A DNA stretch of 64,000 nt, taken from positions 6,708 to 70,707 of IMG/VR virus record IMGVR_UViG_3300009776_000003; one strand, given 5' to 3'. Below are positions 13,972-47,900 of this stretch, piece by piece. A program made the position numbers and the translations under genes. How positions within the stretch are numbered: the stretch's first letter is position 1; each line of letters begins with the position of its first letter. The notes beneath the pieces were generated by a model. That model was given only the letters and a program-made list of their open reading frames with translations, searched no databases and had not been told where the DNA came from. The stretch comes from a virus. Lineage: Duplodnaviria > Caudoviricetes.

Positions 13972-14068
13972 AATTTTAGACAGTCCCTCCGCAGCCGCTT
14001 ATCAACCCTCCGCTTCTCACAGCCGCCAAGCGTAACACTACACACATCCTCACTGAGGAGCGATACAG

Positions 14069-15172
14069 ATGGCAACTTCTGCCGCGACAACGACAGTCAT
14101 GACGCCTAATGCGCGGATTGACGTTAGTGTGATCAATGATCACATTAAGAAGCTGACTGAACCATTGTACAGAAAACATCTTCTGCTTGGCATGATGCGC
14201 AAGAAGGGTCGCATCATCAGCAATTGCAGTGGGAAGGGCTTCGACTGGAGAGTCAAGTTCCGTCGCGCCACGCCGCAGACCGGCGACGACATGTCCACCA
14301 ACACCTTTCAGCGCATGAACCGCTACAAGAAAGCCGAGCTTCCTTGGCGGCGTCTCTGGTACGGCGAGGCGATCTCCGATTTCGAGAAGCGGTGCGCTGG
14401 TGGGCCGGAAGCGCTGATCAAGTTGGTCAGCGAGTGGGCCAAGTCGGCGACTGACGACTGCAACGAGTACTTCGCCACCGAGATTTTCGGTGACGGCGAC
14501 TCGACCACCACGCCGGATCACATCCATGGATTGGAGACGCTTTTCAAGACGAATACCGGCTACGCTGCGATCTCCAGTTCGGTCTTCGTCAAGACCGGAA
14601 ACTCCGACACTTATGCTGGCCTGTATACGCAGGTCGGCAAGTATTCCAGCGACTGGACTGGAACATTCCCTGATGGCACCGGAAGCGAGACCTATCATTT
14701 CTGGAGTCCATGGTGGGTCGATACGACCAACGCCAACCACAGCGCCTCCACGAAGACTTGGCCCAATACTTGGCGTGAGTGCTTACGCAAGCTGAGCACT
14801 GCGCAGCAGGCGCTGGTTGGGCAACAGCCAGACATCATCATCCTCGCGCCTGAGTACTTGCGTCAGGCGAAGGAAAGCCTCGATGCGAAAGAACGCATTG
14901 AGGTTACTGCCGCCAGCGATGCGGTCGATTTGGGCTTCAAAACCGTCAACTTTGAAGGAATCGAACTCGCGGCAGAATACGGCGTCTCTGGCGTCGGCTA
15001 CGGAGTTTGCTACGACAAGATGGAGCTGCGTCTGCTTGGCCAGAGCCAACTGTTCGAGGCCAAGAAGGACTACGACATCGAGACGAATACTGATCGTCTC
15101 CTTCTCGAATGCTACTCCAACATGAAGTTCGAGTCTCCCATCTACTTCAGCAAACTCTCGGCTGTCTCCTAG
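14069..15172 (+). CDS. Major capsid protein
   Basis: 367 aa, after the scaffold and before the decoration gene and terminator. GAGGAG RBS, strongly biased codons, and a pattern typical of HK97-fold coats (IHGLE, DIIIL, GFKTVNFEG). Confidence 0.8.
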   Translation: MATSAATTTVMTPNARIDVSVINDHIKKLTEPLYRKHLLLGMMRKKGRIISNCSGKGFDWRVKFRRATPQTGDDMSTNTFQRMNRYKKAELPWRRLWYGEAISDFEKRCAGGPEALIKLVSEWAKSATDDCNEYFATEIFGDGDSTTTPDHIHGLETLFKTNTGYAAISSSVFVKTGNSDTYAGLYTQVGKYSSDWTGTFPDGTGSETYHFWSPWWVDTTNANHSASTKTWPNTWRECLRKLSTAQQALVGQQPDIIILAPEYLRQAKESLDAKERIEVTAASDAVDLGFKTVNFEGIELAAEYGVSGVGYGVCYDKMELRLLGQSQLFEAKKDYDIETNTDRLLLECYSNMKFESPIYFSKLSAVS

Positions 15173-15197: not shown

Positions 15198-15758
15198 ATG
15201 AGCGTTTATCCGACACTGCCATTTCCGCGTGGGCAAACCTACGGAGACGGCCAACTGACCTTGACCGATACGACTGCCAAGCATCTGGAAGGCAAGCGAT
15301 TCCGCGTGCCTGACACGCTGCATGGCACGAAGGGGGATGTCGTTCTTCGCGTTGTGAAGAACGATGCTGGCGCCGATCTCACCATCAGCAAGCGCGTCCT
15401 CAAGTGGTCAACCGCTTCCGAGGACGACATCGGCAATCGCGTGGACGGCTGGGCCACCGCCTCGGTCCATGGCAAGCCGATTGACGACTACTACCTCGGT
15501 CGCAAGACGACCATTCCAGACGATGACCTTTTCTATGTAGTGGACGAAGGTCCATGTGATGTACTGATTTCCACCACTACCTCGACTGCTATCTCGGCTG
15601 CTGGAAAGCCGGTTCAGGTCGCAGCCGCTGGTTGCGTTGGGCAGTGCGCCGACAACAAGATCTCCATCGGAACCGCGCTGGAGGCGAAGAGTACGGCTGC
15701 ATTGACGGCAGTGGCCATCTATGTCCATGCCGGAATCATCACCAACTACAACGCCTAG
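15198..15758 (+). CDS. Capsid decoration/cement protein
   Basis: Directly after the MCP; VVDEGPCDV and IGTALEA motifs of cement-like proteins. Confidence 0.6.
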   Translation: MSVYPTLPFPRGQTYGDGQLTLTDTTAKHLEGKRFRVPDTLHGTKGDVVLRVVKNDAGADLTISKRVLKWSTASEDDIGNRVDGWATASVHGKPIDDYYLGRKTTIPDDDLFYVVDEGPCDVLISTTTSTAISAAGKPVQVAAAGCVGQCADNKISIGTALEAKSTAALTAVAIYVHAGIITNYNA

Positions 15759-15774
15759 TTGTTCGCAGTTCAAC

Positions 15775-15810
15775 GGACTGGCGGTACTCGCCCCACCGCC
15801 AGTCCTTTTT
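15775..15810 (+). terminator. Rho-independent terminator
   Basis: GGACTGGCGGT-9 nt-ACCGCCAGTCC-TTTTT. Confidence 0.85.
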
Positions 15811-15844
15811 CAAACCTCCCCAAGCCTCCAACCCAAACCGAGCC

Positions 15845-16633
15845 ATGTACCGAATCTGCGTGATCTTGCCGACCGGCTTCTCGTACACCTGTCCTGATCT
15901 GTCCACTTGGGTTTTCCGATGGGCGTATCATCTCCATCTCGATCAGGACATCGCCGGTCTCGACTGGTTTCAGGTCAAGAACTGCCGCATCGATCTGATG
16001 CGCAATATGGGAGTGGCCCACGCGAGGGCGACCAAAGCGACCCATATCCTCTGGATCGATCCAGACATGGTGCTGGACAAGTACCTCGGCAAGACAGCGT
16101 CAGGAGAGCCGGTTGCAAACTCACGCTTCAAGCCGTTCTGGCAGACCGCGTGGAAGTTCATCAAAGAGCATCCGATGTCGATTGCGGCGGCACCTTACTG
16201 CGGTTGCTACCCGCTGAGACCTTGGCATGTCTTCACCAAGAACGAGAGCGACAGATTGGTCCGCGTGGATCACGAAACTGCGCGCAACCTGCGGGGCTGG
16301 ACAGCGGTAGAGGCGGTCGGAACTGGCGCCATGCTTATGGACGCGAGGATCTTCGACCGATTGGAGCAGCCTTACTTCAGAGACTCTTATCAGGACGAGA
16401 CGCATACCAAGTTGCGACTGACGCAGGATGTGGATTTCTGTCTGCGGTGTCGCGGCAAGGGAGTCGGCATCTACGTCAACTGGGACACGCCAGCAGGACA
16501 CTGGCAGAACTCGGTGGTCGATCCGCCCTATCTGGAAGAGATCGAACACTACGAAGCTCCTGTACCTTTGGCCAACGATCCATCGGTCCCAGTGTTGACG
16601 ATGGAGGGTGGTGGCGACAAGGCATGGACATAA
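15845..16633 (+). CDS. GT-A (GT2-like) glycosyltransferase inside the head/packaging operon
   Basis: ICVILPT, IDLMRN, HILWIDPDM, VEAVGTGAMLM and QDVDFCLR motifs. Confidence 0.8.
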   Translation: MYRICVILPTGFSYTCPDLSTWVFRWAYHLHLDQDIAGLDWFQVKNCRIDLMRNMGVAHARATKATHILWIDPDMVLDKYLGKTASGEPVANSRFKPFWQTAWKFIKEHPMSIAAAPYCGCYPLRPWHVFTKNESDRLVRVDHETARNLRGWTAVEAVGTGAMLMDARIFDRLEQPYFRDSYQDETHTKLRLTQDVDFCLRCRGKGVGIYVNWDTPAGHWQNSVVDPPYLEEIEHYEAPVPLANDPSVPVLTMEGGGDKAWT

Positions 16634-17285: not shown

Positions 17286-17623
17286 TGGCGTACCCAAGAC
17301 AAGAAGCCGACAACCTGCTGCGTGAGTTGACCAAGAAGTCAATGGCAGCCGCCAACATCAACGTCTTCATCGAAGAGATGATGAAGCAGTTCGGTGGTCC
17401 TGGTGGCTTGGCCAGAGAGATGCGATTGCTTTACGACGATGCACCGCCTTCGGTCAAGGCTCGCATCGCAGATGGACTGGTAACGCTGATGCTCAAGACC
17501 TCGGATGCAGGTAATCCAGAGGACTGGCTTGAGCCTCAAGATCTCGAAGCGCTGGCTCGCAACGAAATCAAGAAACTGCTGCTAGAGGAAGATGGTAGAC
17601 GGCTTGATGAAGAGATCGGCTGA
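17285..17623 (+). CDS. Probable terminase small subunit
   Basis: Small helical protein immediately upstream of, and overlapping, TerL. Confidence 0.5.
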   Translation: MAYPRQEADNLLRELTKKSMAAANINVFIEEMMKQFGGPGGLAREMRLLYDDAPPSVKARIADGLVTLMLKTSDAGNPEDWLEPQDLEALARNEIKKLLLEEDGRRLDEEIG

Positions 17624-19271
17624 CGCGCTCCGCATGAGTGCTCAGCCGAGAATCGAACCTATAGATCTCCGCGCGGAGTGCATTGCTCGCGCCAAGCGGA
17701 TGCTCTCGGTTCGCGCCAAGCGGATGTACGAGGGGCTGGCCCTCTATCAGCCGCTGCCTGCCGTCGTTCCGTTTCACTCTAGCTCAGCCAAGTGGCGGCT
17801 GTTGGACGCATCCAATCAGAGCGGTAAGACGCTGGCTGGCGCCGTAGAACTAGCCCGCTGCGTTCTTGATCAAGATCCCTACCGTAAGTACCCTCGCCAA
17901 AACGGCAAAGCCATCGTCGTTGGGCTGGATGAGAAACACTTGGCTGATCCGATCTGGGTCAAGCTCGGAGAGCCTGGTGCCTTTCACATCATCCGCGACG
18001 AGCACACCAAGCTATGGCGAGCTGTTCGACCAGACCCAGAGAATCCCAGACGACTCGATCCCTACGATGCGGCATACAGAGAGAAGTGGAAGGATGCCCC
18101 TCCGCTCATTCCTCAACGTATGCTCGTCGGTGGCCAGCCTACTTGGTACGACAAGGGCAAGCGAATCCCTCACTCGCTCAACCTTCGCAATGGCTGGACG
18201 GTTCGTTTCACTGGATCGAAGGGCAAGGCTGAACAGGGCACCCAATACCGCTTCGGCTGGATTGACGAGCACATCGAGGACGAGAGCCACTACGTTGAAA
18301 TGAATCGCGGATTCATGCGCCACGCAGGAGTTGGCGTGTGGACCGCTACGGCACAAACCGTTAATTTCCAGCTTACTGACCTGCGCGAACGAGCCGCCAA
18401 AGGCGAGAAGAAGATCCTCGCCATCCAGTTGCTGCTGGAAGACAACCCCTTCATCTCGACCGAAGCGAAGCAGGACTTCTTCGACATCCTCTCTGAGGAC
18501 GAGCGAGCAGTCCGCTTCTACGGTAAGCCAGCCATCGCTGGAAGACTCATTTACTGGATGTTCAAGCCGCAGGAAGACCATGGCTGCGAGCCGTTTGATA
18601 TCCCAGATGATTGGTCGAGATACATCTTCCTTGATCCTGGTCGTCAGAACTGCGGAACCATCTTCGTTGCGGTAGATCCAGAAGAGAAGCACCGCTGGGT
18701 CTACGACAGTTTCATCCTGCGGCACAGTGATGCCTCTACTTGGGCGCATGAAGTCAAGATGCGTCAAGGCAAGCGTAAGTACGAGTGCGTGGTGTGCGAC
18801 CAGCGAGCCGGTAAGCAGACCTCGATGGGTCGCTCGACCGGCGACACCGTTGCACACCACTACTTTCAAGCGCTGATGGAGGAAGGCGTCTCGCTGCGGA
18901 GAGTTGGCAGTATGGACGGTTTCTTCGCTGCTAGTGCTGATGTATCCGCGAGAGAAGAGTGCCTCATCCAGTGGATGGCCATCCGAGAGATCGGTCCCTT
19001 CACTGGATCACCGCTGCTGAAGATGTTTCGTGGTCGCAATAAGGATCTTGAGCGACAGATTTACCGAGCGCACATGAAGCTCGACAGAGCCGACAAGCGT
19101 GAGCGCTTGGAGAGTGATGCCCTAGACTGCCTCGAATACGCGGCAGCCTATAACCCAACCTATTACCCACCAGAGCCAATCGACAACTCACGCGACGACA
19201 AAGTCTACCAAGCCTACCTTCGTCGCAAAGAGGGTCGTAGTCGCCAACTTGCAGGCGCTGTGTTGGGGTAG
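17592..19271 (+). CDS. terL: Terminase large subunit
   Basis: Walker A ASNQSGKT, Walker B FGWIDE, RNase-H-like IFLDPG and C-terminal DALDCLEY. Confidence 0.9.
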   Translation: MVDGLMKRSADALRMSAQPRIEPIDLRAECIARAKRMLSVRAKRMYEGLALYQPLPAVVPFHSSSAKWRLLDASNQSGKTLAGAVELARCVLDQDPYRKYPRQNGKAIVVGLDEKHLADPIWVKLGEPGAFHIIRDEHTKLWRAVRPDPENPRRLDPYDAAYREKWKDAPPLIPQRMLVGGQPTWYDKGKRIPHSLNLRNGWTVRFTGSKGKAEQGTQYRFGWIDEHIEDESHYVEMNRGFMRHAGVGVWTATAQTVNFQLTDLRERAAKGEKKILAIQLLLEDNPFISTEAKQDFFDILSEDERAVRFYGKPAIAGRLIYWMFKPQEDHGCEPFDIPDDWSRYIFLDPGRQNCGTIFVAVDPEEKHRWVYDSFILRHSDASTWAHEVKMRQGKRKYECVVCDQRAGKQTSMGRSTGDTVAHHYFQALMEEGVSLRRVGSMDGFFAASADVSAREECLIQWMAIREIGPFTGSPLLKMFRGRNKDLERQIYRAHMKLDRADKRERLESDALDCLEYAAAYNPTYYPPEPIDNSRDDKVYQAYLRRKEGRSRQLAGAVLG

Positions 19272-35560: not shown

Positions 35561-36321
35561 GCGACATGCTTCCATGTCTTTCGCAGCAAGATGGAGCTTA
35601 CGACGGTCTGTGTAACCGAGAATAGCTTTCCAATCTTCTCCTGCGACATCGTACCGGCCAACCTCCTTATCTCCCTAACGTCATCTTCATTTAACTTCGC
35701 GGCCCACTGCTTGGTTCCGCGCGTTCCGCATGGCTTGATGACGATGGGGCGCTTTACGTCTGTGTAGCCATTCCCTCTCGCTATGCTTGTTATGGCTCCG
35801 CCTGAGACTCCGAAGTGTTTGGCCACATCACCAGCGTACATCGTTTTGTACATTTCCACAATCTTGGGAATGTCTTCGTCCTTTAGCTTAGCGTTTCCAC
35901 TTCTCCTCCCAAGACCTGACGTTCCATGCCGCTTCTTATCCTCTATGTTTTCTTCTCTGGTTCCGTAGTGTAGGTTGCTAAGGTTTGCGTTGGATTTATT
36001 GCCGTCTCGGTGGAGCGTTTCCATTCCATCAGGTTTCGGACCAACAAACGCCAAGAGGACTAGGTGGTGTACCTTGACGGTCTTTCTCTTGTTGTGTATG
36101 CAGATCACCAAGTCAGGATAACCTTGGCTTTTCGACGGCTTTAGCTTTCTCCATGTGATTCGGAAGTCGCCGACCTCGGTGGGCTTATGCCAGTTTCTGC
36201 AACTCCACACCTCGCCTCGATCAGTAACGGCGTAACCAGGATAATCAGGAACGTGCCTAATCTCTCCATCAACCTCTGGTAGCGGCGGCAAGATACTGGT
36301 ATACTTTCCACATGTGGCCAT
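35557..36321 (-). CDS. NUMOD4-HNH homing endonuclease with C-terminal HTH repeats
   Basis: IRHVPDYPGYAVTDRGEVWS (NUMOD4), VHHLVLLAFVGPKPDGMETLHRDGNKSNANLSNLHYGTREEN (HNH_3) and two AKL...I..IR repeats. Confidence 0.9.
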   Translation of the reverse strand: MATCGKYTSILPPLPEVDGEIRHVPDYPGYAVTDRGEVWSCRNWHKPTEVGDFRITWRKLKPSKSQGYPDLVICIHNKRKTVKVHHLVLLAFVGPKPDGMETLHRDGNKSNANLSNLHYGTREENIEDKKRHGTSGLGRRSGNAKLKDEDIPKIVEMYKTMYAGDVAKHFGVSGGAITSIARGNGYTDVKRPIVIKPCGTRGTKQWAAKLNEDDVREIRRLAGTMSQEKIGKLFSVTQTVVSSILLRKTWKHVA

Positions 36322-36354
36322 TCTTAGAACCTTTCTGTTAAGGGTGGCCAATAG

Positions 36355-36385
36355 AAGCAGGCTGGACTACAGATCCAGCCTGTTT
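36355..36385. other. 12-bp stem-loop upstream of the HNH gene
   Basis: AAGCAGGCTGGA-7 nt-TCCAGCCTGTTT. Confidence 0.55.
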
Positions 36386-36533
36386 CGTTTATACCAGTAA
36401 GTGCAAATCCAGTGGAGGCGCTAGCTCATTGATCTAGCAACGAACACCACAAGGGACCATATAATCGCGACTGAGAATCCAACCGCCGCCCATATTTTCC
36501 ACTCTCTCCTTTCCTCGTCATGTCTTGGTTTCT

Positions 36534-37346
36534 TCATTTGAACTGTCCATTCGAGAATCTATTGAGGGGTAACTGCGGCATGGCCCACAGTGGCTTTCCG
36601 GATTTTAGACAACTATCGTAGTAAGAAATCCTATCTGCTAATGGCTGCCAATAATAAATCATTCCTTCCGCCGTCTTAATCCCCTTCCTGCGCAGCTCGT
36701 CTGATAGCTTGCCAATCGACTCTCCTTGCTTCCATCGCCGGTGCATCTCTGCGATGGTCTCACGCTCATCAGGCGCCGGTTCGTAAGCTATCACCCTCCA
36801 CCGATGCGCTGAGATCTGAATCTTCTTGCGCTTGAATCCAAACGCTCGCATCGGTCGCACCACCAATCCTCTCGCTTTTCGCCAAGCAATCGCTTCCTTC
36901 GTCTTCTTGGAATGCTGCTTGAGGAACAGGTCGGCGGCAAGCAACTGCGAGGTGATAATCAACACACACATCGGATCATCCATATCAATGTAGACGCCGC
37001 CTAGATGCTCTAGGCAGATGATCCTCACTCCTGATCTGTGCAGCGTGAGCAGCGTCAGGAGGGCACTGGTGAGGTTTCTGCTGAACCTGTCCCATCTCGC
37101 GGTGATCAGGATGTCTCCTGCTTTCAGGTGGGTGAGGATCTTCTGGCCATCTGGTCGATCCTCGAAGCAGATGCCGCCAGAGACATTGTTGTCCTCGAAG
37201 ATATGCTCGACTCGCAGGCCAAGCTCCTTGGCCTTGTCTCGTATCTTCTCGTTCTGGCGCTCGATGGAATCCTCATCCTCGATTGACACTCTACTGTAAC
37301 CGTAGGTCTTGCCTACGACTGGTCGGTTACTCGATTTTGCGATCAT
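36534..37346 (-). CDS. Serine recombinase (resolvase catalytic domain plus short recombinase domain)
   Basis: YGYSRVS...SIERQ, FEDNNVSG...RP, GDILITARWDRFSRN; AAGGAGG RBS. Confidence 0.92.
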   Translation of the reverse strand: MIAKSSNRPVVGKTYGYSRVSIEDEDSIERQNEKIRDKAKELGLRVEHIFEDNNVSGGICFEDRPDGQKILTHLKAGDILITARWDRFSRNLTSALLTLLTLHRSGVRIICLEHLGGVYIDMDDPMCVLIITSQLLAADLFLKQHSKKTKEAIAWRKARGLVVRPMRAFGFKRKKIQISAHRWRVIAYEPAPDERETIAEMHRRWKQGESIGKLSDELRRKGIKTAEGMIYYWQPLADRISYYDSCLKSGKPLWAMPQLPLNRFSNGQFK

Positions 37347-37363
37347 ACGTTACAATCCTCCTT

Positions 37364-38080
37364 ATGGATACATCTAATTGGCCAAAGGTTTCCTGCTTGT
37401 GTATCGCAGGAAAGTCACGCTACAACGCCACTGTACTCTTGCCAGTGGCGGTCCAGTGCTTTATCGAGCAGGACTATCCGAACAAAGAGCTGGTCGTTGT
37501 TTACGACGACAACTGGAAAGCTGTCGGCAGTGTGAGCCAGCGGTTCGACTGTAAGGATGTCCGCTGGCATGTCACCGACAAGGCGCCACTTGGAGCGCTG
37601 AGGAACAAGTCGATAGAGTTCGCCAGTTCTGGTCTGCTGGTGCAGTGGGATTCGGACGACGCATTCCATCCTCACTACGTTTCTGTGATGGTTCGCACCC
37701 ACCTGCAATCGCAGCTCCCAGTCTTCCTCAAGCGCCAACTGGTTTACGACCTGCAACGAGATGTTGCCGCCGTTCGCAGTTTTCCAAAGACTTGCATTCA
37801 TGGAGCCAACCTCCTGCCCAGAGGTGACTGGCGATACCCAGAGATTGGCGCCACCGAGGATACGGAGATCCTCAAGCACTTTCCGCATGTAGCTTTGCTC
37901 GATGCGCCAGAGTTGTACCTGCGGATGTTTACAGGCGACAACACTTGGGATCGCCTCCATGTCATGCGAGAAGCCTCCGAATGGCCCAGTGGTACTTGGA
38001 TGATACCTGAGAGGGCGATAGAGTGGGTTAGGGAAGTCACCTCTCGCTACTCTTCTTCCGATACTTCGGTTTCTGCCTAA
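37364..38080 (+). CDS. GT2 family glycosyltransferase (lone plus-strand gene)
   Basis: KVSCLC, AVQCFIEQDYPNKELVVVYD, LGALRN and VQWDSDD motifs. Confidence 0.85.
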   Translation: MDTSNWPKVSCLCIAGKSRYNATVLLPVAVQCFIEQDYPNKELVVVYDDNWKAVGSVSQRFDCKDVRWHVTDKAPLGALRNKSIEFASSGLLVQWDSDDAFHPHYVSVMVRTHLQSQLPVFLKRQLVYDLQRDVAAVRSFPKTCIHGANLLPRGDWRYPEIGATEDTEILKHFPHVALLDAPELYLRMFTGDNTWDRLHVMREASEWPSGTWMIPERAIEWVREVTSRYSSSDTSVSA

Positions 38081-38185
38081 TCACCTCCCTGATCTTCTCG
38101 ATAGATAGATCATCAATGTCGCGCTCGATGATCTTGATCATCTTTCTGGCGACAGTGCGGAGGGTTGGTTTGGGTGGTTTCTTTT

Positions 38186-38431
38186 TCATTTGGTCGCCTC
38201 TCCAAACATCACGCCAGCAAGCCCACTGATCGCGTCTAAGTGGCGATCCTTGCAGTGCTGGCATTCTCGATTGAACAGGAAGTTGCCGCAGCTTGTGCAG
38301 TGCGTTGAATGCACCCACAGTTCGCGGTCATCCAGTTTGCGGTCGTTGACAACGTCTCTGACTCCCTTGCAGTACTGGCAGACGCTGCGCATCGATCTGG
38401 TCTTTTGACCGCAGAATCGGCAATGGGCCAT
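38186..38431 (-). CDS. Multi-Zn-ribbon small protein
   Basis: CRFC/CQYC/CTSC/CQHC; GGAGGTGA RBS. Confidence 0.65.
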   Translation of the reverse strand: MAHCRFCGQKTRSMRSVCQYCKGVRDVVNDRKLDDRELWVHSTHCTSCGNFLFNRECQHCKDRHLDAISGLAGVMFGEATK

Positions 38432-38602
38432 AAGTCACCTCCAATAGTTCTCACCTCAAAACCCCACCACCCCAGCCGCCTAGCGTGAGGTGCGCGCTGG
38501 CGGCATGTTGCGGCCCTATCCGCTAGGGGTGGTGGGTAAATACGTTAGCTAAAGCCCCACCTGCCGGTCGCGAACCGGCTGATCGCGTGGGGGTGGGTGG
38601 GT

Positions 38603-38839
38603 TTAGTGAGACTCGTACTCAGAGGATCGGTCAACAATCAAACGCTTTCCATTGTAGGTCTGATTGCCGCGAATCTTGCCGCAAGTGCAGTCCTTTTGGT
38701 AGCACAGTTCACGCCGCGCTCTCTTGAGCTGCCCAGCGGTTGGATAGATGACGCACTCGTTGTGAATGTGCGATAGCACCTCACAACGTAGCGTTACGCT
38801 GGTATTGTGGAAGTCGTTTCTAAGCGTTACCAGTGGCAT
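38603..38839 (-). CDS. Hypothetical early protein
   Basis: GGAGGTGA RBS; bounded by hairpins. Confidence 0.7.
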   Translation of the reverse strand: MPLVTLRNDFHNTSVTLRCEVLSHIHNECVIYPTAGQLKRARRELCYQKDCTCGKIRGNQTYNGKRLIVDRSSEYESH

Positions 38840-38948
38840 AGCTTCACCTCCAAGCTATCTTGCCCAGCGGTTCCGCGCTGGTCGGTGGTGCCGATAGCGG
38901 CTACCTCACATACGCAGGCTGGCTAGACTGCGTATGGTGGGGTGGTCG

Positions 38949-39134
38949 CTATAAGACCGGCCGTCCGTAGTAGTCAGGAACATTAGTGTCCCATTTCCTC
39001 TCGCAGTTTTCGCAGTAGACTTCGCGCGGAGGATGTACAGTCGAGTCTACGACCGGATGGGTAAATTGCGCGTGCCCACACACTGGGCATTCCCAAGAGT
39101 AGGCTGGAGTAAGACGTACAGGTTCGCGCCGCAT
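38949..39134 (-). CDS. Small Zn-ribbon protein
   Basis: WECPVCG...CENC; its stop TAG is the first triplet of the hairpin element. Confidence 0.6.
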   Translation of the reverse strand: MRREPVRLTPAYSWECPVCGHAQFTHPVVDSTVHPPREVYCENCERKWDTNVPDYYGRPVL

Positions 39135-39138
39135 TGGA

Positions 39139-39540
39139 TCACGCCTTTCTGCTGTTGGCGACTTCATGCCACAGTTCGGTATCGCCATGGATAAACCTTG
39201 CCGTCTGCGTATCGACCCAGTCGTCGTGCTCTGATCCGGTCTGTACAAGGTCGTAGACGATCTCGCCAACTGCGCGGCTGGTATCTCCGTCTAGGTTCTG
39301 GAGATACACCCTCATGTGAGTAAACATCTCTAGCCACATGCGGCGCAGTTCGTCAAAATGGACTTGTGGGGTCATTGGCTCATCCTCTTTTAGTGGGCTT
39401 ACTGGGCTTGCTGGAATGCTGCGCCGTTGGCGCAGTTCGCCGATTGCGTGAACGACGTTTCCGAATGGTCCGCCACATCCGCGATATTCCGCGAATTTGG
39501 CTACCATTGCATCTAGCTCGGTGTCTGTGAGGATTTTCAT
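39139..39540 (-). CDS. Hypothetical protein
   Basis: GGAG RBS; coupled to the upstream ORF. Confidence 0.55.
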   Translation of the reverse strand: MKILTDTELDAMVAKFAEYRGCGGPFGNVVHAIGELRQRRSIPASPVSPLKEDEPMTPQVHFDELRRMWLEMFTHMRVYLQNLDGDTSRAVGEIVYDLVQTGSEHDDWVDTQTARFIHGDTELWHEVANSRKA

Positions 39541-39722
39541 TGATACTCGATCTCCACTGCATTGTGTAATTGCCGCAAGACATGCAAGATTTCTCTTGCT
39601 CTCTCGCGATCCTTGCAAGATTTCCGCATTGCCTGAACATCGATCGCGTAATCGATCTCTCCTGAGTCTTGCCCGCTGCCGCGAATGACAATCGCGCACA
39701 GTACGGTGTCTGATGTTTTCAT
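39537..39722 (-). CDS. Hypothetical protein
   Basis: GAAAGGAAGGA RBS; overlapping stop/start. Confidence 0.55.
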   Translation of the reverse strand: MKTSDTVLCAIVIRGSGQDSGEIDYAIDVQAMRKSCKDRERAREILHVLRQLHNAVEIEYQ

Positions 39723-39979
39723 GCTGTCCTTCCTTTCCATGGGTTGTTGGTGTGAAAACTTGTAGCGATAGCCTGCACAGTGCGGTATCGCTTGGTGTCG
39801 GTTTGGCCCCTACGTTCCAGTAGTCCCATCACGCGAAGTGCGCGCTTGTAGGGGGTGTCGTAGTGGTATTCGCCTTGATCGAAAAACGCCTCGCGCAATA
39901 CTCCTCTACCGCGCTCATTTAGGCCAGTTACGAAAAACTGCTTTCTGCAACGGACCACTTTGGGGAATAGTCTTGCCAT
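39719..39979 (-). CDS. Hypothetical early protein
   Basis: GAGGTG RBS after the hairpin. Confidence 0.65.
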   Translation of the reverse strand: MARLFPKVVRCRKQFFVTGLNERGRGVLREAFFDQGEYHYDTPYKRALRVMGLLERRGQTDTKRYRTVQAIATSFHTNNPWKGRTA

Positions 39980-40076
39980 TTTGCACCTCGGTTCTAAGGG
40001 TTAAAGTAATCTAGCGGCTACCTCGGACGCGCGGAGGGTGAGGGCCGCGCGTAATGGGGTGGTCGCTAGGGGGCTG

Positions 40077-40544
40077 CTACTTTTCAACCCCTTCCTTTCT
40101 ACGTTCGTAGCCCTTGCACCCTTCGCAATCGCCTAGCCAGTTATTGGCGATCTCGTCGTAATCTGCCCTCTCGATTGCAGATTGCAACAGGTTGCCATAC
40201 AGTGATACTCCATCGAGCGGATTGCCGTCTTCTACGCTGTCTCTGATTGTTTTCGCTAGGTTGTATCTAGCGACTTGGGATCGCGTGAGAACCTCATTAG
40301 GTTCAGCGGTATCCCACGCTGTTCTGGCTGTATCCCAAGCCCAGCGGTTGCTGCCTTCCTCATCCATGATCCAGAGATTTACGCACCAAGTTTCGTAGTT
40401 CGTCCAGCCATTGTATGTGGTGTCCTCTGGTTTGCGCGCTTCTGCCAGAGCATTCACTAGCGCGTTGTGTTCCTCGCGCAGTTCGCCGCTTTCGCGCTTG
40501 CCGATAACGCGATTAGGCCATAGCCAAGATTGAAAGGATGACAT
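40077..40544 (-). CDS. Phage early protein with YNGWTNYETW motif
   Basis: YNGWTNYETWCVNLWI is a recurrent phage DUF motif; GAGGTG RBS. Confidence 0.75.
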   Translation of the reverse strand: MSSFQSWLWPNRVIGKRESGELREEHNALVNALAEARKPEDTTYNGWTNYETWCVNLWIMDEEGSNRWAWDTARTAWDTAEPNEVLTRSQVARYNLAKTIRDSVEDGNPLDGVSLYGNLLQSAIERADYDEIANNWLGDCEGCKGYERRKEGVEK

Positions 40545-40655
40545 ACTTGCACCTCTGCCCAGTGGGGCGTTAGGGGGTTGCTTCTCCGCACACTACCCTT
40601 ATGCTGCGCTCGCAGCGTAGGGGTAGGGCGCGGAGGTGGCGCCCTAGGGGGTAGG

Positions 40656-40820
40656 TTATCTATTGGCCCTTAAGGCCAGTAGGAATGCCAGACGGCCAAT
40701 CTCTTGCGACACAACTTCCTCGGCGCGTTCCAGTTTCAGGCCGCCGCTGACGGCTTTGCGGATTGCAGAGTAAATTGCCTTGCGGAGCGTGTATTCTATC
40801 TTAGCAATCGGCTTGTTCAT
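40656..40820 (-). CDS. 54-aa hypothetical protein (missed by the ORF track)
   Basis: MNKPIAKIEYTLRKAIYSAIRKAVSGGLKLERAEEVVSQEIGRLAFLLALRANR; GAGG RBS. Confidence 0.6.
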   Translation of the reverse strand: MNKPIAKIEYTLRKAIYSAIRKAVSGGLKLERAEEVVSQEIGRLAFLLALRANR

Positions 40821-40843
40821 TTCTGCCTCTTGGGGTAGGGTGG

Positions 40844-41587
40844 TTATTCTTCAATGTACGCGAAGTATCCTTGTTCCCTCAGTTCAAAACAGCGCGCTTG
40901 GGCCGATTCGTCAGAGTAGAAAGTTTCGGTATTGTCGCCGAGATCGTTCCAGTGGATTACATAGGCGATAGCGTATTGTGCGATATCTTCCCAGTCGATG
41001 GATTCGGCGACGCGTTCCCAATGGATACACATGCCACTTCCATCTTCATACCAGTATTCGCAAGCATTGTCGGCTACCTCTGAAAATAAATCCCACATGG
41101 CGCCGCTGTCTGGCCAATTGAATTCTGCCTCAAAGCGCTTCTCTAAGTGGCGCTCAAGGTCTCTGCGGTAGCAATTGTCGAAAGTCTCTTGAGATTCCTC
41201 ATATTGAATCTCTGAATAGCGCTCCTCATCTAGGATCGGATGGTCGTTCAGCCGATCATGCGCTTCCATCCATGCGCGGAAAGCATCAGTAATCTGGCCA
41301 TTGCGATAAACGCGAATGCTGTACCCATCCACCCATCCGCAAGCCCAATGGCCATGGTGCTCTGGAAAGCAATCAGGGTCATCGCCATCCATGAATGGTT
41401 CCATGGTATCGGCGAGCGCTTCAGCATTGGCGCGATCAAGTGGGCCGCTGTCACGATTGCAAGTGTACACAATGGTCCATTGGTCCGGATCTTCCGGCCT
41501 ATCGTGCCAGCCGAAGCTTTCGAAATGGCGCCAGTTACCAGCGGCTTCGCGCGCTGCGCTTTCGAGATCGGAATGGAGAGTTGTCAT
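40844..41587 (-). CDS. Acidic phage early protein (NRDS...HWACGWV...HPILDE family)
   Basis: Motif set recurrent in phage early regions; GAGGTG RBS. Confidence 0.75.
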   Translation of the reverse strand: MTTLHSDLESAAREAAGNWRHFESFGWHDRPEDPDQWTIVYTCNRDSGPLDRANAEALADTMEPFMDGDDPDCFPEHHGHWACGWVDGYSIRVYRNGQITDAFRAWMEAHDRLNDHPILDEERYSEIQYEESQETFDNCYRRDLERHLEKRFEAEFNWPDSGAMWDLFSEVADNACEYWYEDGSGMCIHWERVAESIDWEDIAQYAIAYVIHWNDLGDNTETFYSDESAQARCFELREQGYFAYIEE

Positions 41588-41686
41588 AATCACACCTCAC
41601 AGAACTAGGGGTTTAGGGAAAACCAGCCACCACTACGCTAGCGCTAGGCCAGCGCAGAGGTGGGCGGTTTGGCGCCGCCCTAGGGA

Positions 41687-42067
41687 TTACTGCTTTGCTG
41701 TTTCGTAGGGATACGGATTGCTTTCTCTGTCAGCATACCAGCGCTTAAAGGCTTGCGATTGTTCGTCTGTCCTGTATTGGCAGACGGTTATTTCCTCAAA
41801 GTCCTGTTGGTTAGCAACTGCGCTGTCATGATGCAGGTTTCCTGTTGCCGTTAGTGGCTCAGAACAAGCGAAACGAGAGATCGTCAAACCCAACCCTGCA
41901 TTTCCGTCTCTGGCGGTAATCTTGATTGCCCTATTGCCGTCTGCGGATCTAATCCAGATCTCCGGCTGGCCGTTAGGCCAAAGGATAACTTGGGCGCCGT
42001 TGAACAGCGCAGACGGATTGTCGAATAGTTCGGCATACTGCTTTTTTGTTCTGCGGTATTTGGCCAT
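41687..42067 (-). CDS. Hypothetical early protein
   Basis: GGAGGTG RBS; bounded by hairpins. Confidence 0.7.
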   Translation of the reverse strand: MAKYRRTKKQYAELFDNPSALFNGAQVILWPNGQPEIWIRSADGNRAIKITARDGNAGLGLTISRFACSEPLTATGNLHHDSAVANQQDFEEITVCQYRTDEQSQAFKRWYADRESNPYPYETAKQ

Positions 42068-42150
42068 AATCGCACCTCCGAGAATAGGGATAGGGAACAC
42101 AACCGTACACACTCTAGCCCTTGGGAAAGGGCTAGGGGGTGGAAGGGGTG

Positions 42151-42666
42151 TTAAGCTATCCGACCACTAAACGCATGAATGTTGCGTGTGCCGACATGAG
42201 GATTAGAACAGCCCCTTATGATCCTGTCTACTTTGCCATAGCATCTTGGCCAATCAATGGTTGTACCGTCGATAGTGAGCTGAGCTGGTGAGATCTCAGG
42301 ATAGCCGTCTTTCTCCCAGTCTCGCTCGGCTGAGGTGAATTGTTCATTCTGCTCTAATCCGCAGGCGGTTCCGTTCTCCAGAATGAGGATAGTGTGACAT
42401 CCCTCATGATAGAGCGCGATAGGGGCTATTTGCCGAAGTGCATCGCAAGATAGCATTACGCTTGCGACATGAGGGGCCATTGTGTCGCCAGTGTTCCAGT
42501 TTTCGGAAAGCTTAACGTCTTCTGGGAGACCATAGGCATCGCAGAAGATACGCTTACCCTTTCGAGTAAGATCGGTAAGAATGCGAAAGCCAAGATTGTC
42601 GGCCTCACCTGTAAGCAGATCGAAACCGTATGCTCCGAGATCTAGCAAGCAACTAATGGTCTTCAT
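42151..42666 (-). CDS. Hypothetical early protein
   Basis: GAGGTG RBS; LLTGEADNLGFRILTDL motif; bounded by hairpins. Confidence 0.7.
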   Translation of the reverse strand: MKTISCLLDLGAYGFDLLTGEADNLGFRILTDLTRKGKRIFCDAYGLPEDVKLSENWNTGDTMAPHVASVMLSCDALRQIAPIALYHEGCHTILILENGTACGLEQNEQFTSAERDWEKDGYPEISPAQLTIDGTTIDWPRCYGKVDRIIRGCSNPHVGTRNIHAFSGRIA

Positions 42667-42739
42667 GGTACACCTCAAGTGATAGGGAGTAAACGCCACA
42701 CATAGAGACGCCAGCGTACTGGCGTCGTTAGTGGGGCGG

Positions 42740-42931
42740 TTACAGTCTAGGCACCTCTGAGAACAGGACCACGTTGCCTTCAATAGCCACTACGCCGCCG
42801 CGCTCGATTGCTGCGTGTGTGGCCGCTTCAAGCGTAGGATAACGGCCACAAAGGGCAGATGAGTTTTGAATGTTCTGGAGAATGTAAGGGTTGGCTGCCT
42901 TCCATCGTTCCACGTCGGATCTGGTAGTCAT
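42740..42931 (-). CDS. First gene of the small-gene array, hypothetical
   Basis: GAGGTG RBS; MTTRSDVERW... Confidence 0.6.
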   Translation of the reverse strand: MTTRSDVERWKAANPYILQNIQNSSALCGRYPTLEAATHAAIERGGVVAIEGNVVLFSEVPRL

Positions 42932-43199
42932 CTGAGCACCTCGCTTGATAGGGGATAGGGCAAACATGCTTATAAGATATCGGACTTTGGCCAGCGAATC
43001 AAGAGCATAAAGACAGACAAAGATAGATGTTGACAGGCATTCAGAGAATTTTGGCGACGCAAAGCTATTGGCGGCAATCGCTTGGAAGTATTCCGAGAAA
43101 ATTCTTGGATTGAAAATGGCGAGAGACAGCGGACACTCGGTATTCCAGTAATGATGGAGGATTGATTGACGCAAGGCAATGTCCGTTAACGGATTGTGT

Positions 43200-44766
43200 G
43201 GGCTTGACTGAAATTGCCAAGTTTGTTGTGGCAATTAGGTGGGGGATGAGAGGCGCGAGAGACAGTATATATGGTCGGTGCGAGAGACGGCGCCGAGAGC
43301 GCTCAGAGCTGGGATCAGTCTCGGAGGCGACCAGGCCGAGACCGAGACCGGATCAGCCGAGACTGATCAGGTGAGACTGGTGGGGAGCATCGCTGGCGAG
43401 AGGTGGCGGCGGATGGCTGGCGAGAGGTGGCTAGCGACGCATGCGCAGGCGCGATAGAGATACTGTCAAGCGACGATTTGGCGCAAGTCGTTGCGGGATA
43501 AGGAGTTGTGGTCGATGATAGCGTGGTTGTCTACACTTGTAGACGACGTAAGTCGTTGTGGCGTAAGGGGTTACGGTTCGAATTTTACCCCAAAAATACC
43601 GAATTTCGGCCGTCGGATACAATCCTCAATAGCCTTTTTCCCTTACAGGGGGGGCGGCAACGTCGCAACCTCTTGCGGCGCAGCCACTTGCGCCGACGCG
43701 CCGACGACCCCGCACGCCGCCACCCATCCCCCGCAGCCCCCCATCGCCGATCCGACCGTCCTTTTGGATACCTTACCACTCGAATATACGCCACCACCCT
43801 CAAGTGTATCATTTTGATACACTCTTCTGGGTGGTACCCATCATATATGCTGGCCAACTGTATCAAAATTGAACACTTCTGGCGTCACCACCCCTTCGAG
43901 CGCCATCACTTTGACTACACTTCGCCCTCCCTCACCTCCTAGATCCCTTCCCCTCGAAATACGCGCCTCCCACATCGCCTACGAGCCTCACCAGAGCCAC
44001 TTCTCCCTCACCCCCATAATTCCACCCTCGGCCTTCCCTAGCCCCTCCGCGCTCGCTGTGGCCTCACTCAGCCTCGCACTATCGCCACTTGCCGTACCCA
44101 CCACTGGAACACTCGTACCAAAAACTGGACCGTCTCTCTGGGATACCTTACCGCCGAAATATACAAAGTGATCATTCGCCTCACCTACCTTACCAACTTA
44201 GTCATCAATTCCCAAAACAGGAATCTCAAAACGTTGCCACCAAAGGACTTACGAAAACCTTGACAAAAAACAAGCATACACTTGTACAGGAGTGTATACA
44301 TTTTCTATACACCCCCCTACCTCGCCATAACTCTATTCCCCACAACCACTTGCGCCGATTTTTCGCCTTTTCAAACTGACCGTCAAAAAAAATAGTTGCA
44401 GTTTTTGAGTGACTATGGTACGCTGCGAGCAGCCGCTTAAGCGACTTAGCTGCGAGCATCCTCAGCAGTCTAGCTTATCGGCCAACTTCGCAGTCACGCT
44501 ACTACGCTATACAGCACTCTCCCGCTGAGGCGTGTCTGCTTAAGCATCGAAGCGAGTACTTCGCGAGATGCGCTTCCGCAGTCAATGCGAAGCTATTGCT
44601 TACTAGCGCTAGGAACTAAGCGCTCAGACTTAGGTACTTAAGCGCTCGAAGTCACGCCAACTGGCTCGGTGACGCTTCGCTTCAACTTGGTGCGGTAGTC
44701 TTCTTCAAAGCGAAGCGCAAAGCACAGCGAGCGGGAGCGAGCGGGTCGAGGCGAGTAGCGTGAGCG
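43200..44766. other. Large non-coding control region (candidate packaging, terminus or origin region)
   Basis: No credible ORFs. The plus strand is G-rich before a G7 run (43648-43654) and C-rich after it. Contains multiple dyads and direct repeats. Confidence 0.65.
43484..44352. repeat. Five copies of the 9-7-9 palindrome related to the attP-adjacent site
   Basis: 43484-43508, 43549-43573, 43666-43690, 44227-44251 and 44328-44352. Confidence 0.65.
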
Positions 44767-44979
44767 TTAAGCGAGCCTCGACTGCCGAGGTGTGAAGCTC
44801 ACCGGCGCGGTGGTCAAACCGCAAGAGTCTGCGTCACCGTCACAGCGGACTGGTGGGCAAATAGCGCTTGGAGCCAGCGAGGGCTCTGGGCCACCACTGG
44901 CGCCACCAGACCCACTAAGCAAACCACTCTCATGGAAAGCGTCTGGAGTGGAGAACACATACACTTCCGCCGCGGCGCC

Positions 44980-47900
44980 TCACTGGAACACCTTTCGCAC
45001 TTGCAGGCCATTGAGGCTTCCGCCGACATCGGATAGGTCTATCAAGATCGAATCCTTGAAGACTTCCTCAATGTCCTCGTTGTCACTGGACAGCCTGTCG
45101 TAGGCTTTCGCTGAAACGTGCAGGTTCTCGCCGTCAAAGACGACTGTGTCTGTACCGTTCAATACCGGCCTCCTGATGATGCATATTCCGGTCAGCGAGT
45201 ACATTGCCGCGAATTTCATTGCTTCCCTTTCTGTGAGCCTCTCTTCCTCAGCCTCATCACCAACCCCTCGAACTTCTCCACCGGCATCAACCTAGTGAAG
45301 TTCCATGCTGCCGCCATCCTTCTAGCTTCATCCAGATACAGCGGATGGTGACACTCATCATTGGACCAATCCAAGCATTCTCCATTGAATCCGCACGCTC
45401 GGTCTTTGGCGTACTTCTCGCAGTCGGAGCACTGGTAGACGGTTAGTCTTCGCATGACTCAGTCTTATACGCCTTGTGGATCTTCATTGGCTCCAATCCA
45501 GTACTCACACTCCCCACTCACCGCATCAAACGGTGCATCCATGAACCATGACTGCCTAGCGCTAGCTGGCGCGCTGTACCGATAGCAGGTGTCCTTCTTG
45601 GGACACACTACCATGGTATCCAGCGCTGATGACAGCAGTTTCTTGATGCCGTCGCAGAGTGTGATGTCAGTCACCCCACCCTCCTTCTCACAACGTCACA
45701 TTTCCGCCAGTCCTACTGGCGCCTTTCCTTCCAGAACTCGCTCATCTCACCTGTCACCGCGTCACTGATGTTCCTGTACTTGCCGCTGAAGTGCTTTCCA
45801 GTTGGATCGCTTCTGCCGAACACAACCGCCTCGTATGATCCAGTGCAGTCTGGCACCAGTCTAACTGCATCGCCGTTCCAGCGACCTTTCATGCCTTGTT
45901 GGCCATGCGGCCACAGCAGCCATAGGAGCGCGTCGCTGGCTTTCGATCCGAACAATTCCAAGAACTTCGCGCCTCCACCAAGATCATGCGGATCAATGTA
46001 CTCACGCTTTGCGTCGTTAGCGATGATGTAGTAGATGCCCATTACTGGCCCCTCCCCTCAGCCCTCAGTTCCACTTCCTCTAGCACCTTCGCATACTCAG
46101 CCCTAGCGAACTCAATCATCCTATCGATAGTCGCGCTCAACTGCTCCAATGGAATATCGCAGTCGAACATCACCTCATTGCCGCAAGGATCGGAAAGCCA
46201 AGTTTCCACGCCTGCGTGGCTACCGCCGACATACAAGTCCCACTCCAGCGGCAACCTCTCCACCGCATCCATGAGCGCCTTACCCAACTTCGTCCACTTG
46301 TCCAGTTCCATGGTTCTCCTTTCGAGCGATTGTTGTTCAAGGAATGTGCGGCCAAACAGGAAGAAGTGCATCTGGATAATATCCGCAACACTTATCCACG
46401 ATTGCCGGCACTTTTATCCGCAATCAGCTCATACTCCTTCACCTCCGGTAAGCTCTCCAGCGGCTTCTCTGGGGCCTTCTGCGGCTGAGGCTTGCAGGTA
46501 CGCCTGCGGCGCCGAAGTCCGAAGGGAAGGCACGCTAGGGCCGCCAGGAAGGTTCTGCGTGTTGTGTTCACAAGTTCTCCTCCACGACCAGCTTCGCCTT
46601 GACCGGCTGGACGATGATGTCCAAGTCCTGTTGGACGATGTTCGTCGCGTATCCGGTATCGAGAGCGACCTCAAGCATGACTGGAACACCGCCCACGCTC
46701 TCTCTGATCAGCATCCTTGGCTGACCAAGTCGGTAGTACACCATGCCCTCGCCAACTCTTACCATCCTGAAGCCATCCGCTTGCCTGCGGTCTTCAACGT
46801 CCATTGCGATCTCCTTTCAGACTTGTTTGCTTGGTTTTGTACTTTCAATCACTTCCTTAAATGCGTCCCTCACCGCAGCTACCTTCGTCACCGCCGCATT
46901 GATGTGGAAGGTGGCCATACTGATCTCGTCGTTGAGCTTCTTTGGAGGCTCCAGTTCGTAGCGCCGCAGCCAGAACTCATGGTGCATCAGTTCAAAGCAG
47001 GTGTCGATGAGCCGCTGCATTGACGCGCTGAAGTAGGGGAGTTGGTGTTCGTAGTTGTTCATCGATCCACCTTTCCGTTGTTTCGCTTGCGATTCCTGCA
47101 ATCGTACTCGCATGGCTCTGCCCAGTTCTTCGCGTACTTCTCTGCCACCATCTTCTCCAACAGTCTTGCCGCGATCTCGATGTAGGCGACCGCGAGGTCG
47201 ATGGTAACGGAGTCATCTGGTTCGATCTCATGCGTCACGCACATGACGTTAAGCACCTTCGCTATGGCGATGTCACTTTTGAACCGCGTGTCTCGCAGAA
47301 GGATTGCTACGCTTTCTGGCGTATGTGGGCTACTGTCGGTCACTTTCCCCTCCTTCTAGTTACGTTGCTGTCGATGATTCCTTGGCCCCTTTTGATGTAA
47401 TCTTCCTCGGACCATGGTGGGTAGACTTGCTGGACTCTCGCCCACACTTTGCGCTTCCGCTGTTTGTCCCACAGCGTAACCTTACGGATGCCGATGAAGC
47501 CCTCTTCGCGAATCCTGCGCGCCGCCTCAGCGATCTCCTCCTCGGTAGGCATATATGCCGCTTCGTTACTACGTTTCGTTTGGTTGTAGGCGGCGATCAC
47601 TGCCTTCCTCCTTGAGTTCCTTGAGCTTGCGGATGATGAAAGCGCGGCGCTCTAGGTCTTGGATTTGCCTTAATTCGTCGTCAGTAACTTGGTAGTCTTC
47701 TATGGCCTCGATGACTAGCGGCTTGATGGATGGATCGGAGTTCAGTGCCTCTAGGGCGGCGGTGACGTTTTCGTTGGCGTACCGCTCTGGCTGTCCGTCG
47801 TTGAACGTAATGAGTAGGCAATACAACATCGCAAAAGCGGTAGCAAACAAACCAATGGCCGCCAAAACGTCATTAGATCTCATGCTTCATCCATCCAGAG

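Follow-up and report, generated by a model that had tools for sequence, protein, structure and literature searches.

The array described here is a block of small genes in the genome of an uncultured phage. It lies in a window of 64,000 nt, bases 6708 to 70707 of the 70,707-bp IMG/VR record IMGVR_UViG_3300009776_000003, which is a complete virus genome with direct terminal repeats; positions are those of the window unless another source is named. Between 38432 and 42931, seven of the spacers between the genes A1 to A12 contain eight long hairpins, H1 to H8 (Table 1). We read these spacers as mRNA punctuation, in which stabiliser, processing or attenuator hairpins are combined with a translation leader in a region subject to ordinary gene-border mosaicism, and we give this reading a probability of about 0.55. 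The original prediction, made from the sequence alone, had proposed attC-like recombination sites and had mentioned RNase III sites or terminators, as in the T7 early region, as the more ordinary alternative; the latter is the better reading. The locus looks like otherwise ordinary regulatory punctuation of a plastic accessory-gene run and like a modest variant of known phage cassettes.

We infer that the hairpins act in RNA, and likewise which RNA function they have. The spacers would be composite modules acting on the leftward polycistronic mRNA of an accessory run, either early or moron-type. The C-rich, G-poor tract at the stop codon would form the 5' arm of an irregular hairpin of about 13 to 30 pairs. 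The hairpin would serve as a 3' stabiliser and/or as an RNase III-type processing site or partial attenuator, with the transcript being cut into independently stable units. The G-poor leader with its GAGGTG Shine-Dalgarno (SD) sequence would give each small open reading frame (ORF) efficient initiation of its own. Better folding of the non-coding strand would be a by-product of G-poor untranslated mRNA, and gene turnover would proceed through ordinary phage mosaicism at gene borders, not through site-specific recombination at the hairpins.

Read in the mRNA sense, the module runs from a stop codon (mostly TAA) through a C-tract (often CCCC(C)TAG), a long hairpin and a G-poor leader to the SD and the ATG. 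This reading and the folds bear out the repeating unit of GAGGTG SD, short ORF, stop codon, C-rich tract and imperfect hairpin that had been described, and each hairpin proposed was found at its place or within a few bases of it. The C-tract is the 5' arm of the hairpin, the hairpins begin at the stop codon or a few nucleotides from it, and about 20 to 45 nt separate hairpin and SD. Hairpins are confined to the intercistronic spacers of one co-oriented gene run; this position and the start near the stop codon are counted for mRNA punctuation. All twelve genes lie on the minus strand and start with ATG, most of them with a GAGGTG-type SD 5 to 8 nt before it. Their boundaries comprise seven spacers of 73 to 171 nt and one of 23 nt, and A7 to A10 abut or overlap. 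By direct reading of the sequence, the A10 stop codon (38949-38951) is the right foot of H3, as had been stated, and the same statement on the A11 stop codon (38603-38605) holds in so far as it can extend H2 by TAAA/TTTA pairing.

When the 70.7-kb genome was folded in sliding segments of 80 nt, 21 segments reached -38 kcal/mol or lower, and 8 of these 21 fell within 38454-40673. Nowhere else in the genome are strong folds so densely clustered. All spacers fold below their own dinucleotide shuffles on both strands (z -1.4 to -5.3). H1 and H3 to H6 have 19 to 30 pairs on the mRNA strand with single mismatches, which agrees with the structure of an RNase III-type site (intercistronic, mismatched, at least about 20 bp; H4 has 19 pairs). 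Their length and irregularity fit substrates of double-strand-specific processing.

A terminator scan found no hairpin followed by a T-run in the array spacers, and TTTT follows only H1 and H6. The scan thus gave no canonical intrinsic terminator, with a G+C stem and a U-run, in the array spacers, whereas typical examples elsewhere in the phage have the run. Likely terminators that do have a U-tract are found downstream of the capsid gene (13945-13990), at 36358-36382, following 15756 and, in L022, a phage contig considered below, in the final spacer. The lack of U-tracts in the array, unlike these likely terminators of the phage and L022, is also counted for mRNA punctuation. A consensus scan for sigma-70-type promoters gave no minus-strand promoter in any array spacer.

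H3 and H4, the elements at 38895 and 40012, align without gaps over 57 nt at 84% identity. Their outer arms of 14 and 13 nt are identical, in agreement with the original prediction. The inner stems had been regarded as different, and here the gapless alignment led to another conclusion: of the eight pairs of the inner helix, five are identical, three are doubly compensated and none is broken, and sliding the partner columns destroys the pairing. H3 and H4 are paralogues maintained as hairpins, not unrelated inserts, and the compensatory pairs are counted for mRNA punctuation. Each has one asymmetric 3x2 internal loop, and no regular pattern of extrahelical bases was seen. Beyond this pair, the spacers share stretches of 24-25 nt at 72-76% identity. 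The hairpins gave no match in Rfam.

The leaders of A1, A2, A3, A4 and A7 (five of nine genes) have in common the motif GTTT-N0-3-CCCTA(T). The motif belongs to the 5' untranslated region (UTR), because A1, which is preceded by a control region and by no hairpin, carries it; this too is counted for mRNA punctuation. The promoter candidate upstream of A1 (TTGATT-17-TATCTT) matches the consensus at 8 of 12 positions and lies below the scan threshold. Unmasking of the SD by a terminating ribosome, through anti-SD-like CACCUC in the hairpins, was considered and rejected as a general mechanism. H5 contains CACCUCC on the mRNA strand; when the first 15 nt were blocked, SD accessibility changed by at most 0.07 in five of the seven spacers, and by +0.13 and +0.23 for A11 and A12.

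The module recurs in L022, a 20.5-kb phage contig with a homologue of A6 (DUF7249, 46% amino acid identity), which shares no other detectable protein or DNA with the phage. L022 has the same layout of a non-coding region, a run of small genes with 48-99-nt spacers, a terminal resolvase and then convergent tail genes, so that a serine recombinase ends both the gene run of the array and that of L022. In the L022 spacers a C-tract directly follows the stop codon (the five C-richest have C/G counts from 13/6 to 18/4) and is followed by a G+C hairpin. In several spacers the next element is a small stem-loop in which CTATCAC forms the loop and the stems covary; CCCAAGC, the SD and the ATG come after it. 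At L022:2145-5012 (plus strand, mRNA sense) these stems are of 4-5 bp (GCGG/CCGC, GGCA/TGCC, GGATG/CATCC); all six CTATCAC copies are on the sense strand and five of the six lie in leaders. The recurrence in L022 argues for a functional punctuation module tied to expression in a shared kind of host, and it is counted for mRNA punctuation.

The claim that the non-coding strand folds better stands for six of the seven long spacers, in which the plus strand has the lower energy; H6 is opposite, the sole element folding better on the mRNA strand, with 3 G·U pairs there. As evidence for single-stranded DNA (ssDNA) the bias does not stand, since it is mostly reproduced by shuffles. In all, the plus-strand folds contain 21 G·U pairs and the mRNA-strand folds 5, a distribution that H6 reverses. 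For H3, H4 and H5 the numbers are 3, 5 and 8 on the plus strand versus 0, 0 and 1, so the described asymmetry of G-T (plus) and A-C (mRNA) mismatches is real in these three. Mean fold energies on the plus and mRNA strands were -50.0 versus -42.3 kcal/mol for the real spacers and -37.7 versus -32.0 kcal/mol for the shuffled ones. The plus-strand advantage is therefore 7.7 kcal/mol in real sequence and 5.7 kcal/mol in dinucleotide shuffles, which keep about three quarters of it. The z-scores of the two strands are close, slightly more negative on the plus strand in six of the seven spacers. In L022, too, folding favours the antisense strand, for real spacers and shuffles alike.

In the mRNA sense, C makes up 52%, G 17% and U 11% of the 30 nt that follow the array stop codons. 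The antisense strand folds better because the G-rich complement pairs with both C and U, and where A replaces a pairing G in the 3' arms, the mRNA strand acquires C·A and the complement G·T. Late genes, the capsid gene included, likewise have C-rich, G-poor leaders (12740-12845, 13878-14071 and 15756-15850). Since late-gene leaders share this make-up, keeping G out of untranslated mRNA is a genome-wide habit of the phage. The strand bias is mainly compositional and is no evidence for a DNA strand as the working form; its compositional nature is counted for mRNA punctuation. For sequence-only scans it is a caution, as better folding of the non-coding strand can arise from C-rich untranslated mRNA alone and should be checked against shuffles. 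The structural-gene leaders at 12740-12845, 13985-14068 and 15810-15850 have long tracts ending in CCCAAG-type sequence before the SD.

The same composition could be read as Rho-type polarity or attenuation, in which the C-rich tract after the stop codon loads the termination factor and the hairpin pauses the polymerase, giving graded or antitermination-controlled expression. The C excess after the stop codons, shared by L022, and the hairpins without a U-tract would suit such a mechanism, and the position of the array below a control region resembles lambdoid early operons. However, the C-tracts are just about 15-30 nt long and most lie within a stable hairpin, whereas Rho utilisation (rut) sites are longer and unstructured. 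C-rich, G-poor sequence in the late-gene leaders also makes it a general UTR property and not a specific signal. We consider Rho-type control unlikely. A loose scan for C-tracts was too unspecific and was not used.

The original prediction had described a TAG...CTA foot in six hairpins. It is paired in the minimum-energy folds of H3 to H7, while in H1 the pentamers are complementary and are not used by the fold; the foot of H8 is a variant, as had been noted. The array spacers, 766 nt in total or 1.1% of the genome, contain 12 of the 163 CTAG (a 7-fold enrichment), 14 of the 36 TAGGG and 6 of the 11 CTAGGG in the genome. Genome-wide, CTAG is depleted, with 163 seen versus 270 expected. The foot is a genuine local signal, because so small a part of the genome is enriched in CTAG and TAGGG despite this depletion.

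An enrichment of the CTAG and TAGGG feet of 7- to 36-fold could reflect a function in DNA or in antisense, with the hairpins as sites of a dimeric phage or host protein (an operator, or a site of the small serine recombinase) or as plus-strand ssDNA or antisense RNA. In H3 and H4 the arms do not vary although the loops have diverged, some strand bias remains beyond the shuffles, and both arrays end in a serine recombinase. Serine recombinases act on short double-stranded DNA sites, though, and no repeated short site of that kind was found. The feet vary (TAGCG, TAGGG, TAGCC) and do not make a single site, the bias of H6 is opposite, and no plus-strand promoter or U-tract was associated with the hairpins in the scan. 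A role of this sort appears quite improbable.

Metagenomes of anaerobic digesters, activated sludge, sludge and sediment contain DNA nearly identical to the phage. From four other metagenomes (X2, X3, X4 and X6), contigs were compared with 36000-45000 of the window. X2 and X3 had no differences where contigs cover it, and X4 (sludge) and X6 (sediment) were variants. One X4 contig matches 42065-42395, that is, part of A2, H7 and the whole A3 leader, with 1-nt deletions at 42095 and 42101. Left of 42065, the start codon of A3, it continues into more than 250 nt of unrelated sequence opening a different ORF, so that the 38-nt leader and H7 are retained upstream of the new ORF. A second X4 contig breaks at 40816, the start codon of A5, into a different ORF. 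X4 contigs also break inside A4 (41545) and A7 (39883) and, with an indel, close to the foot of H5 (40575). X4 also has a 498-bp deletion inside A4 (40963-41462), a multiple of three that keeps the frame, which suggests that A4 tolerates the loss of 166 codons or is dispensable. In X6 most of 40.5-43.2 kb is missing and the match resumes at 43528.

The array is thus a plastic set of small orphan genes, as had been proposed, with A3 and A5 replaced and A4 shortened in X4. The breakpoint pattern is what gene-border mosaicism gives and does not single out the TAG/CTA feet, on junction evidence from short assembled contigs of two samples that cover one end of each replaced block and hold two clean events in one metagenome. 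Gene-border mosaicism is common in phages generally. The A3 and A5 junctions at start codons are counted for mRNA punctuation.

Imperfect hairpins that follow ORFs and include the stop codon, structure conserved more than sequence, better folding of the non-coding strand and variable gene content among the variants would together favour attC-like or HUH-like ssDNA recombination sites defining mobile gene cassettes. Integron attC sites are indeed similar in having imperfect hairpins at ORF 3' ends, structure conserved over sequence and a strand nucleotide skew (PMC5027507). Their cores, R' (RYYYAAC) and R'' (GTTRRRY), lie at the hairpin base, with the AAC triplet as the crossover point (PMC5027507). 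Recombination of such sites uses the bottom strand, which is set apart by extrahelical bases and an unpaired central spacer. Searched by regular expression on both strands, the array spacers contained no GTTRRRY, and the only paired core matches are inside the coding sequence of A3. The array therefore has no RYYYAAC...GTTRRRY cores in its spacers, and it differs from integrons further in having neither the AAC/GTT cores with their R/L box organisation nor IntI, and in its junctions, which are not at the hairpin.

The phage tyrosine recombinase had been put forward as a candidate enzyme. The only one encoded (5369-6523, about 32 kb from the array) scored 25 bits on TIGR02249, for which the integron-integrase cut-off is 265, and on NF011946, with a cut-off of 435, it reached 27 bits. 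The enzyme is an ordinary phage integrase. A PF01797 search of the complete 70.7-kb genome, positive in control genomes, found no Y1/HUH transposase. In an integron-type cassette the hairpin's 3' end would be the boundary and the leader would travel with the downstream ORF; A3 is instead replaced from 42065, breaking at the ATG with hairpin and leader kept, and A5 from 40816. The only joint seen in the assembled contigs, which are blind to rare excision circles, was the 498-bp deletion in A4. With the strand bias mostly compositional as well, ssDNA recombination at the TAG/CTA foot finds no support, and we consider attC- or HUH-like sites highly improbable.

A closer precedent for cassettes is found in T4-type phages, where promoter early stem-loop (PeSL) cassettes, each a stem-loop with a promoter, flank ORFans and mediate shuffling and mini-circles (PMC2839356, PMC4122927). 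By analogy, the spacer modules would mainly be homology patches at which recombination enzymes of the phage or host exchange, delete or circularise ORFans. The array resembles the T4-type regions in being a plastic region with ORFans between stem-loop modules and in the insertion or replacement of ORFs among close relatives (PMC2839356, PMC4122927). The replaced ORFs have their junctions inside the conserved leader/start region, patches of similarity exist in the H3/H4 arms of 13-14 nt and in the 24-25-nt stretches, and among the phage proteins are a PD-(D/E)XK nuclease and an AAA_24 protein. PeSLs, on the other hand, have a strong sigma-70 promoter, a working terminator and mutual similarity sufficient for homologous exchange. 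The array spacers have no promoter detectable in the consensus scan and no U-tract, and their shared stretches are short and low in identity, far below those of PeSL copies. Of the indel ends, two replacements fall at the leader/ATG and one junction near the H5 foot, but the others (39883, 40963-41462, 41545) are within genes, as for random mosaicism filtered by selection. Mobile cassettes of the PeSL kind are in our view a doubtful explanation.

For mRNA punctuation, the T7 early transcript may be the nearest mechanistic model, and by analogy T4-type PeSLs and the start-associated sequences (SAS) and extended SAS (ESAS) of mycobacteriophages would be nearest in genome logic. RNase III cuts the T7 early transcript at five intercistronic sites (PMC4858673). 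Like the T7 sites R0.3 to R1.3, the array elements are irregular intercistronic hairpins of about two helical turns, on what would be a polycistronic early transcript, with no U-tract. Cleavage would leave a 3' hairpin upstream and a uniform leader downstream, as in T7 (PMC4858673). The array differs in having no sequence relation to T7 and a host that is not an enterobacterium, in its CTAG feet and C-tract, which are not T7 features, and in two elements shorter than typical RNase III substrates.

In Cluster K mycobacteriophages, SAS is a conserved asymmetric 13-bp motif, GGGATAGGAGCCC, located 3-8 bp before the start codons of some genes, all in one orientation, with function unknown (PMC3203893). 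Roughly half of the copies have imperfect inverted repeats, separated by a spacer that varies, ahead of them (PMC3203893). The logic alone is similar: motif and host differ, the array leaders having GTTT-CCCTA(T)...GAGGTG, and ESAS repeats are of 17 bp with 4-13-bp spacers, whereas the array stems are much longer and start from the preceding stop codon.

Several points weigh against mRNA punctuation. The outer stems contain C·A on the mRNA strand and, with the exception of H6, are 3-17 kcal/mol weaker than the complement. For RNase III, the 13-17 mRNA-strand pairs of H7 and H8 make a short substrate. The strong enrichment of the CTAG/TAGGG feet, and the arms of H3 and H4, which are 100% identical although the loops have diverged, point to a sequence-specific factor; a purely structural role in RNA leaves them unexplained. 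Among the sequencing runs listed with phage sequence, none is on record as RNA.

A broader scheme would take the C-tract-led, CTAG-footed hairpins and the CTATC-type leaders for an undescribed intergenic punctuation system, whose feet are read by a dedicated factor and in which expression is coupled to cassette exchange. The factor could be a phage or host nuclease, an RNA-binding protein or a recombinase, in a system of at least two sequence-unrelated arrays ending in a small serine recombinase. We consider this scheme, its factor included, a rather unlikely one. The array in any case shows cleanly how orphan genes are arranged in a plastic block of an uncultured phage, with a hairpin, a G-free spacer and a strong ribosome-binding leader for each ORF. 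If the CTAG feet were protein or nuclease recognition sites, the modules could be portable expression punctuation for a poorly studied host group and, with PeSLs and SAS/ESAS, would make a third independent case of phage regulatory cassettes marking gene-swap points.

Table 1. Hairpins, leaders, genes and neighbouring features of the A1-A12 array (window positions).
Feature	Position	Strand	Description
A1 leader	42932-43000	-	GTTT-CCCTAT...GAGGTG motif; weak sigma-70-like promoter candidate just upstream
A1	42740-42931	-	63-aa ORFan; GAGGTG SD; no Pfam or PHROG match
H8	42692-42739	-	Directly after A1 stop codon; variant foot; -28.3 (plus) and -24.9 (mRNA) kcal/mol; 17-18 pairs
A2	42151-42666	-	171-aa ORFan
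H7	42106-42146	-	CTAG...CTAG foot; 13 pairs on mRNA strand
A3 leader	42068-42105	-	GTGTT-CCCTATCCCTAT-N6-GGAGGTG-N6-ATG
A3	41687-42067	-	126-aa ORFan; unrelated ORF in its place in X4
H6	41603-41686	-	CTAGGG...CCCTAG foot; -42.4 (mRNA) versus -36.6 (plus) kcal/mol; 30 pairs on mRNA strand
A4	40844-41587	-	247-aa ORFan; 498-bp internal deletion in X4
A4-A5 short spacer	40821-40843	-	C-tract and SD, no long hairpin; TAA CCACCCTACCCCAAGAGGCAGAA ATG
A5	40656-40820	-	54-aa ORFan; replaced from start codon in X4
H5	40566-40652	-	Strongest fold, -57.5 (plus) and -42.4 (mRNA) kcal/mol; TTAGGG...CCCTAG foot; 28 pairs on mRNA strand
A6	40077-40544	-	155 aa; DUF7249, Pfam PF23907, E 8.7e-9
H4	40008-40072	-	Paralogue of H3; 19 pairs on mRNA strand
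A7-A10	38949-39979	-	Four small ORFs (86, 61, 133 and 61 aa), packed or overlapping, no hairpins between
H3	38895-38951	-	22 pairs on mRNA strand; A10 stop codon in foot
A11	38603-38839	-	78-aa ORFan
H2	38550-38605	-	Same 171-nt A11-A12 spacer as H1
H1	38463-38538	-	26 pairs on mRNA strand; with H2 in 171-nt A11-A12 spacer
A12	38186-38431	-	81-aa ORFan; the final gene to follow a hairpin spacer
Small serine recombinase	36534-37346	-	PF00239, E 1.6e-25; distal end of the leftward run that holds A1-A12; given as context

Most of the small array genes fall into no family of Pfam or PHROG; A6 belongs to DUF7249, and A10 has weak, sub-threshold zinc-ribbon matches. Ten array proteins fall into 90% clusters of one or two members each, and all homologues of A2 and A6 are at or below 47% identity. 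The distant homologues of A2 (37-47%) include one in a Thermoguttaceae metagenome-assembled genome; the 47%-identical one lies in a tightly packed operon without long spacers, and the contig of another homologue carries a DUF1559-type gene. The Thermoguttaceae homologue and the DUF1559-type gene are weak hints of a host in the Planctomycetota.

No usable close relatives were obtained with A4, the recombinase and the H3/H4 arm pattern in IMG/VR, with the recombinase and the H7 pattern in JGI metagenomes, or with the terminase in GTDB genomes, and the collections searched held no intermediate relatives. Contigs with an identical A2 (L007-L011) are 100% identical to the window and hence give zero covariation. 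Terminase relatives at 41-45% identity have scattered strong hairpins, no CCCCTAGSG motif and no comparable array. The nearest relative of the serine recombinase among 1.84 billion representative proteins is 34% identical, and its contig stops before any array.

In the genome as a whole, a rightward block from about 7 to 35.5 kb holds the structural genes, with the terminase at 17592-19271, and nearly all genes beyond 35.5 kb are leftward. The leftward run that holds A1 to A12 begins below a 0.6-kb non-coding region (42932-43600) and leads past A12 to the serine recombinase and then to an HNH endonuclease. Between these two, at 36358-36382, lies a perfect 10-bp hairpin that is likely a bidirectional terminator: on the plus strand a T-run comes after it, on the minus strand CTTCTATT. 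The rightward late operon ends 0.8 kb before this hairpin, and late transcripts would therefore cross the HNH gene in antisense.

The non-coding region upstream of the array contains, at 43119-43431, many plus-strand G(C)CGAGA(G/C) repeats, among them three copies of GCGAGAGAC and a tandem 24-mer, GGC(T)GGCGAGAGGTGGC, in two copies. These repeats are iteron- or operator-like and may mark an origin or control region. The X6 variant differs left of 43528, just before the palindrome GTCTACA-CT-TGTAGAC.

The phage has a CsrA homologue, with 57.5 bits on the CsrA model (cut-off 73), next to a divergent 60-aa ORF without a family match (3800-3970 and 4009-4191, both minus strand). Plus-strand loops as a CsrB-like sponge for this homologue were rejected because GGA is not consistently in the loops, and no link between CsrA and the hairpins was found, GGA being present in just three array SDs.

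Beyond A12, two overlapping ORFs compete, 37283-38080 (plus) and 37415-37960 (minus), and public gene calls disagree on which is real; the plus-strand ORF matches Glycos_transf_2 with 24.4 bits, just above the cut-off. Homologues of A6 were found across many phage contexts. A 50-nt part of this DUF7249 gene (40369-40418) is 86% identical to L022, and many unrelated metagenome contigs begin or end their match there (loose ends at 40371-40419, X3 and X6). This part is a conserved core of a widespread phage gene.

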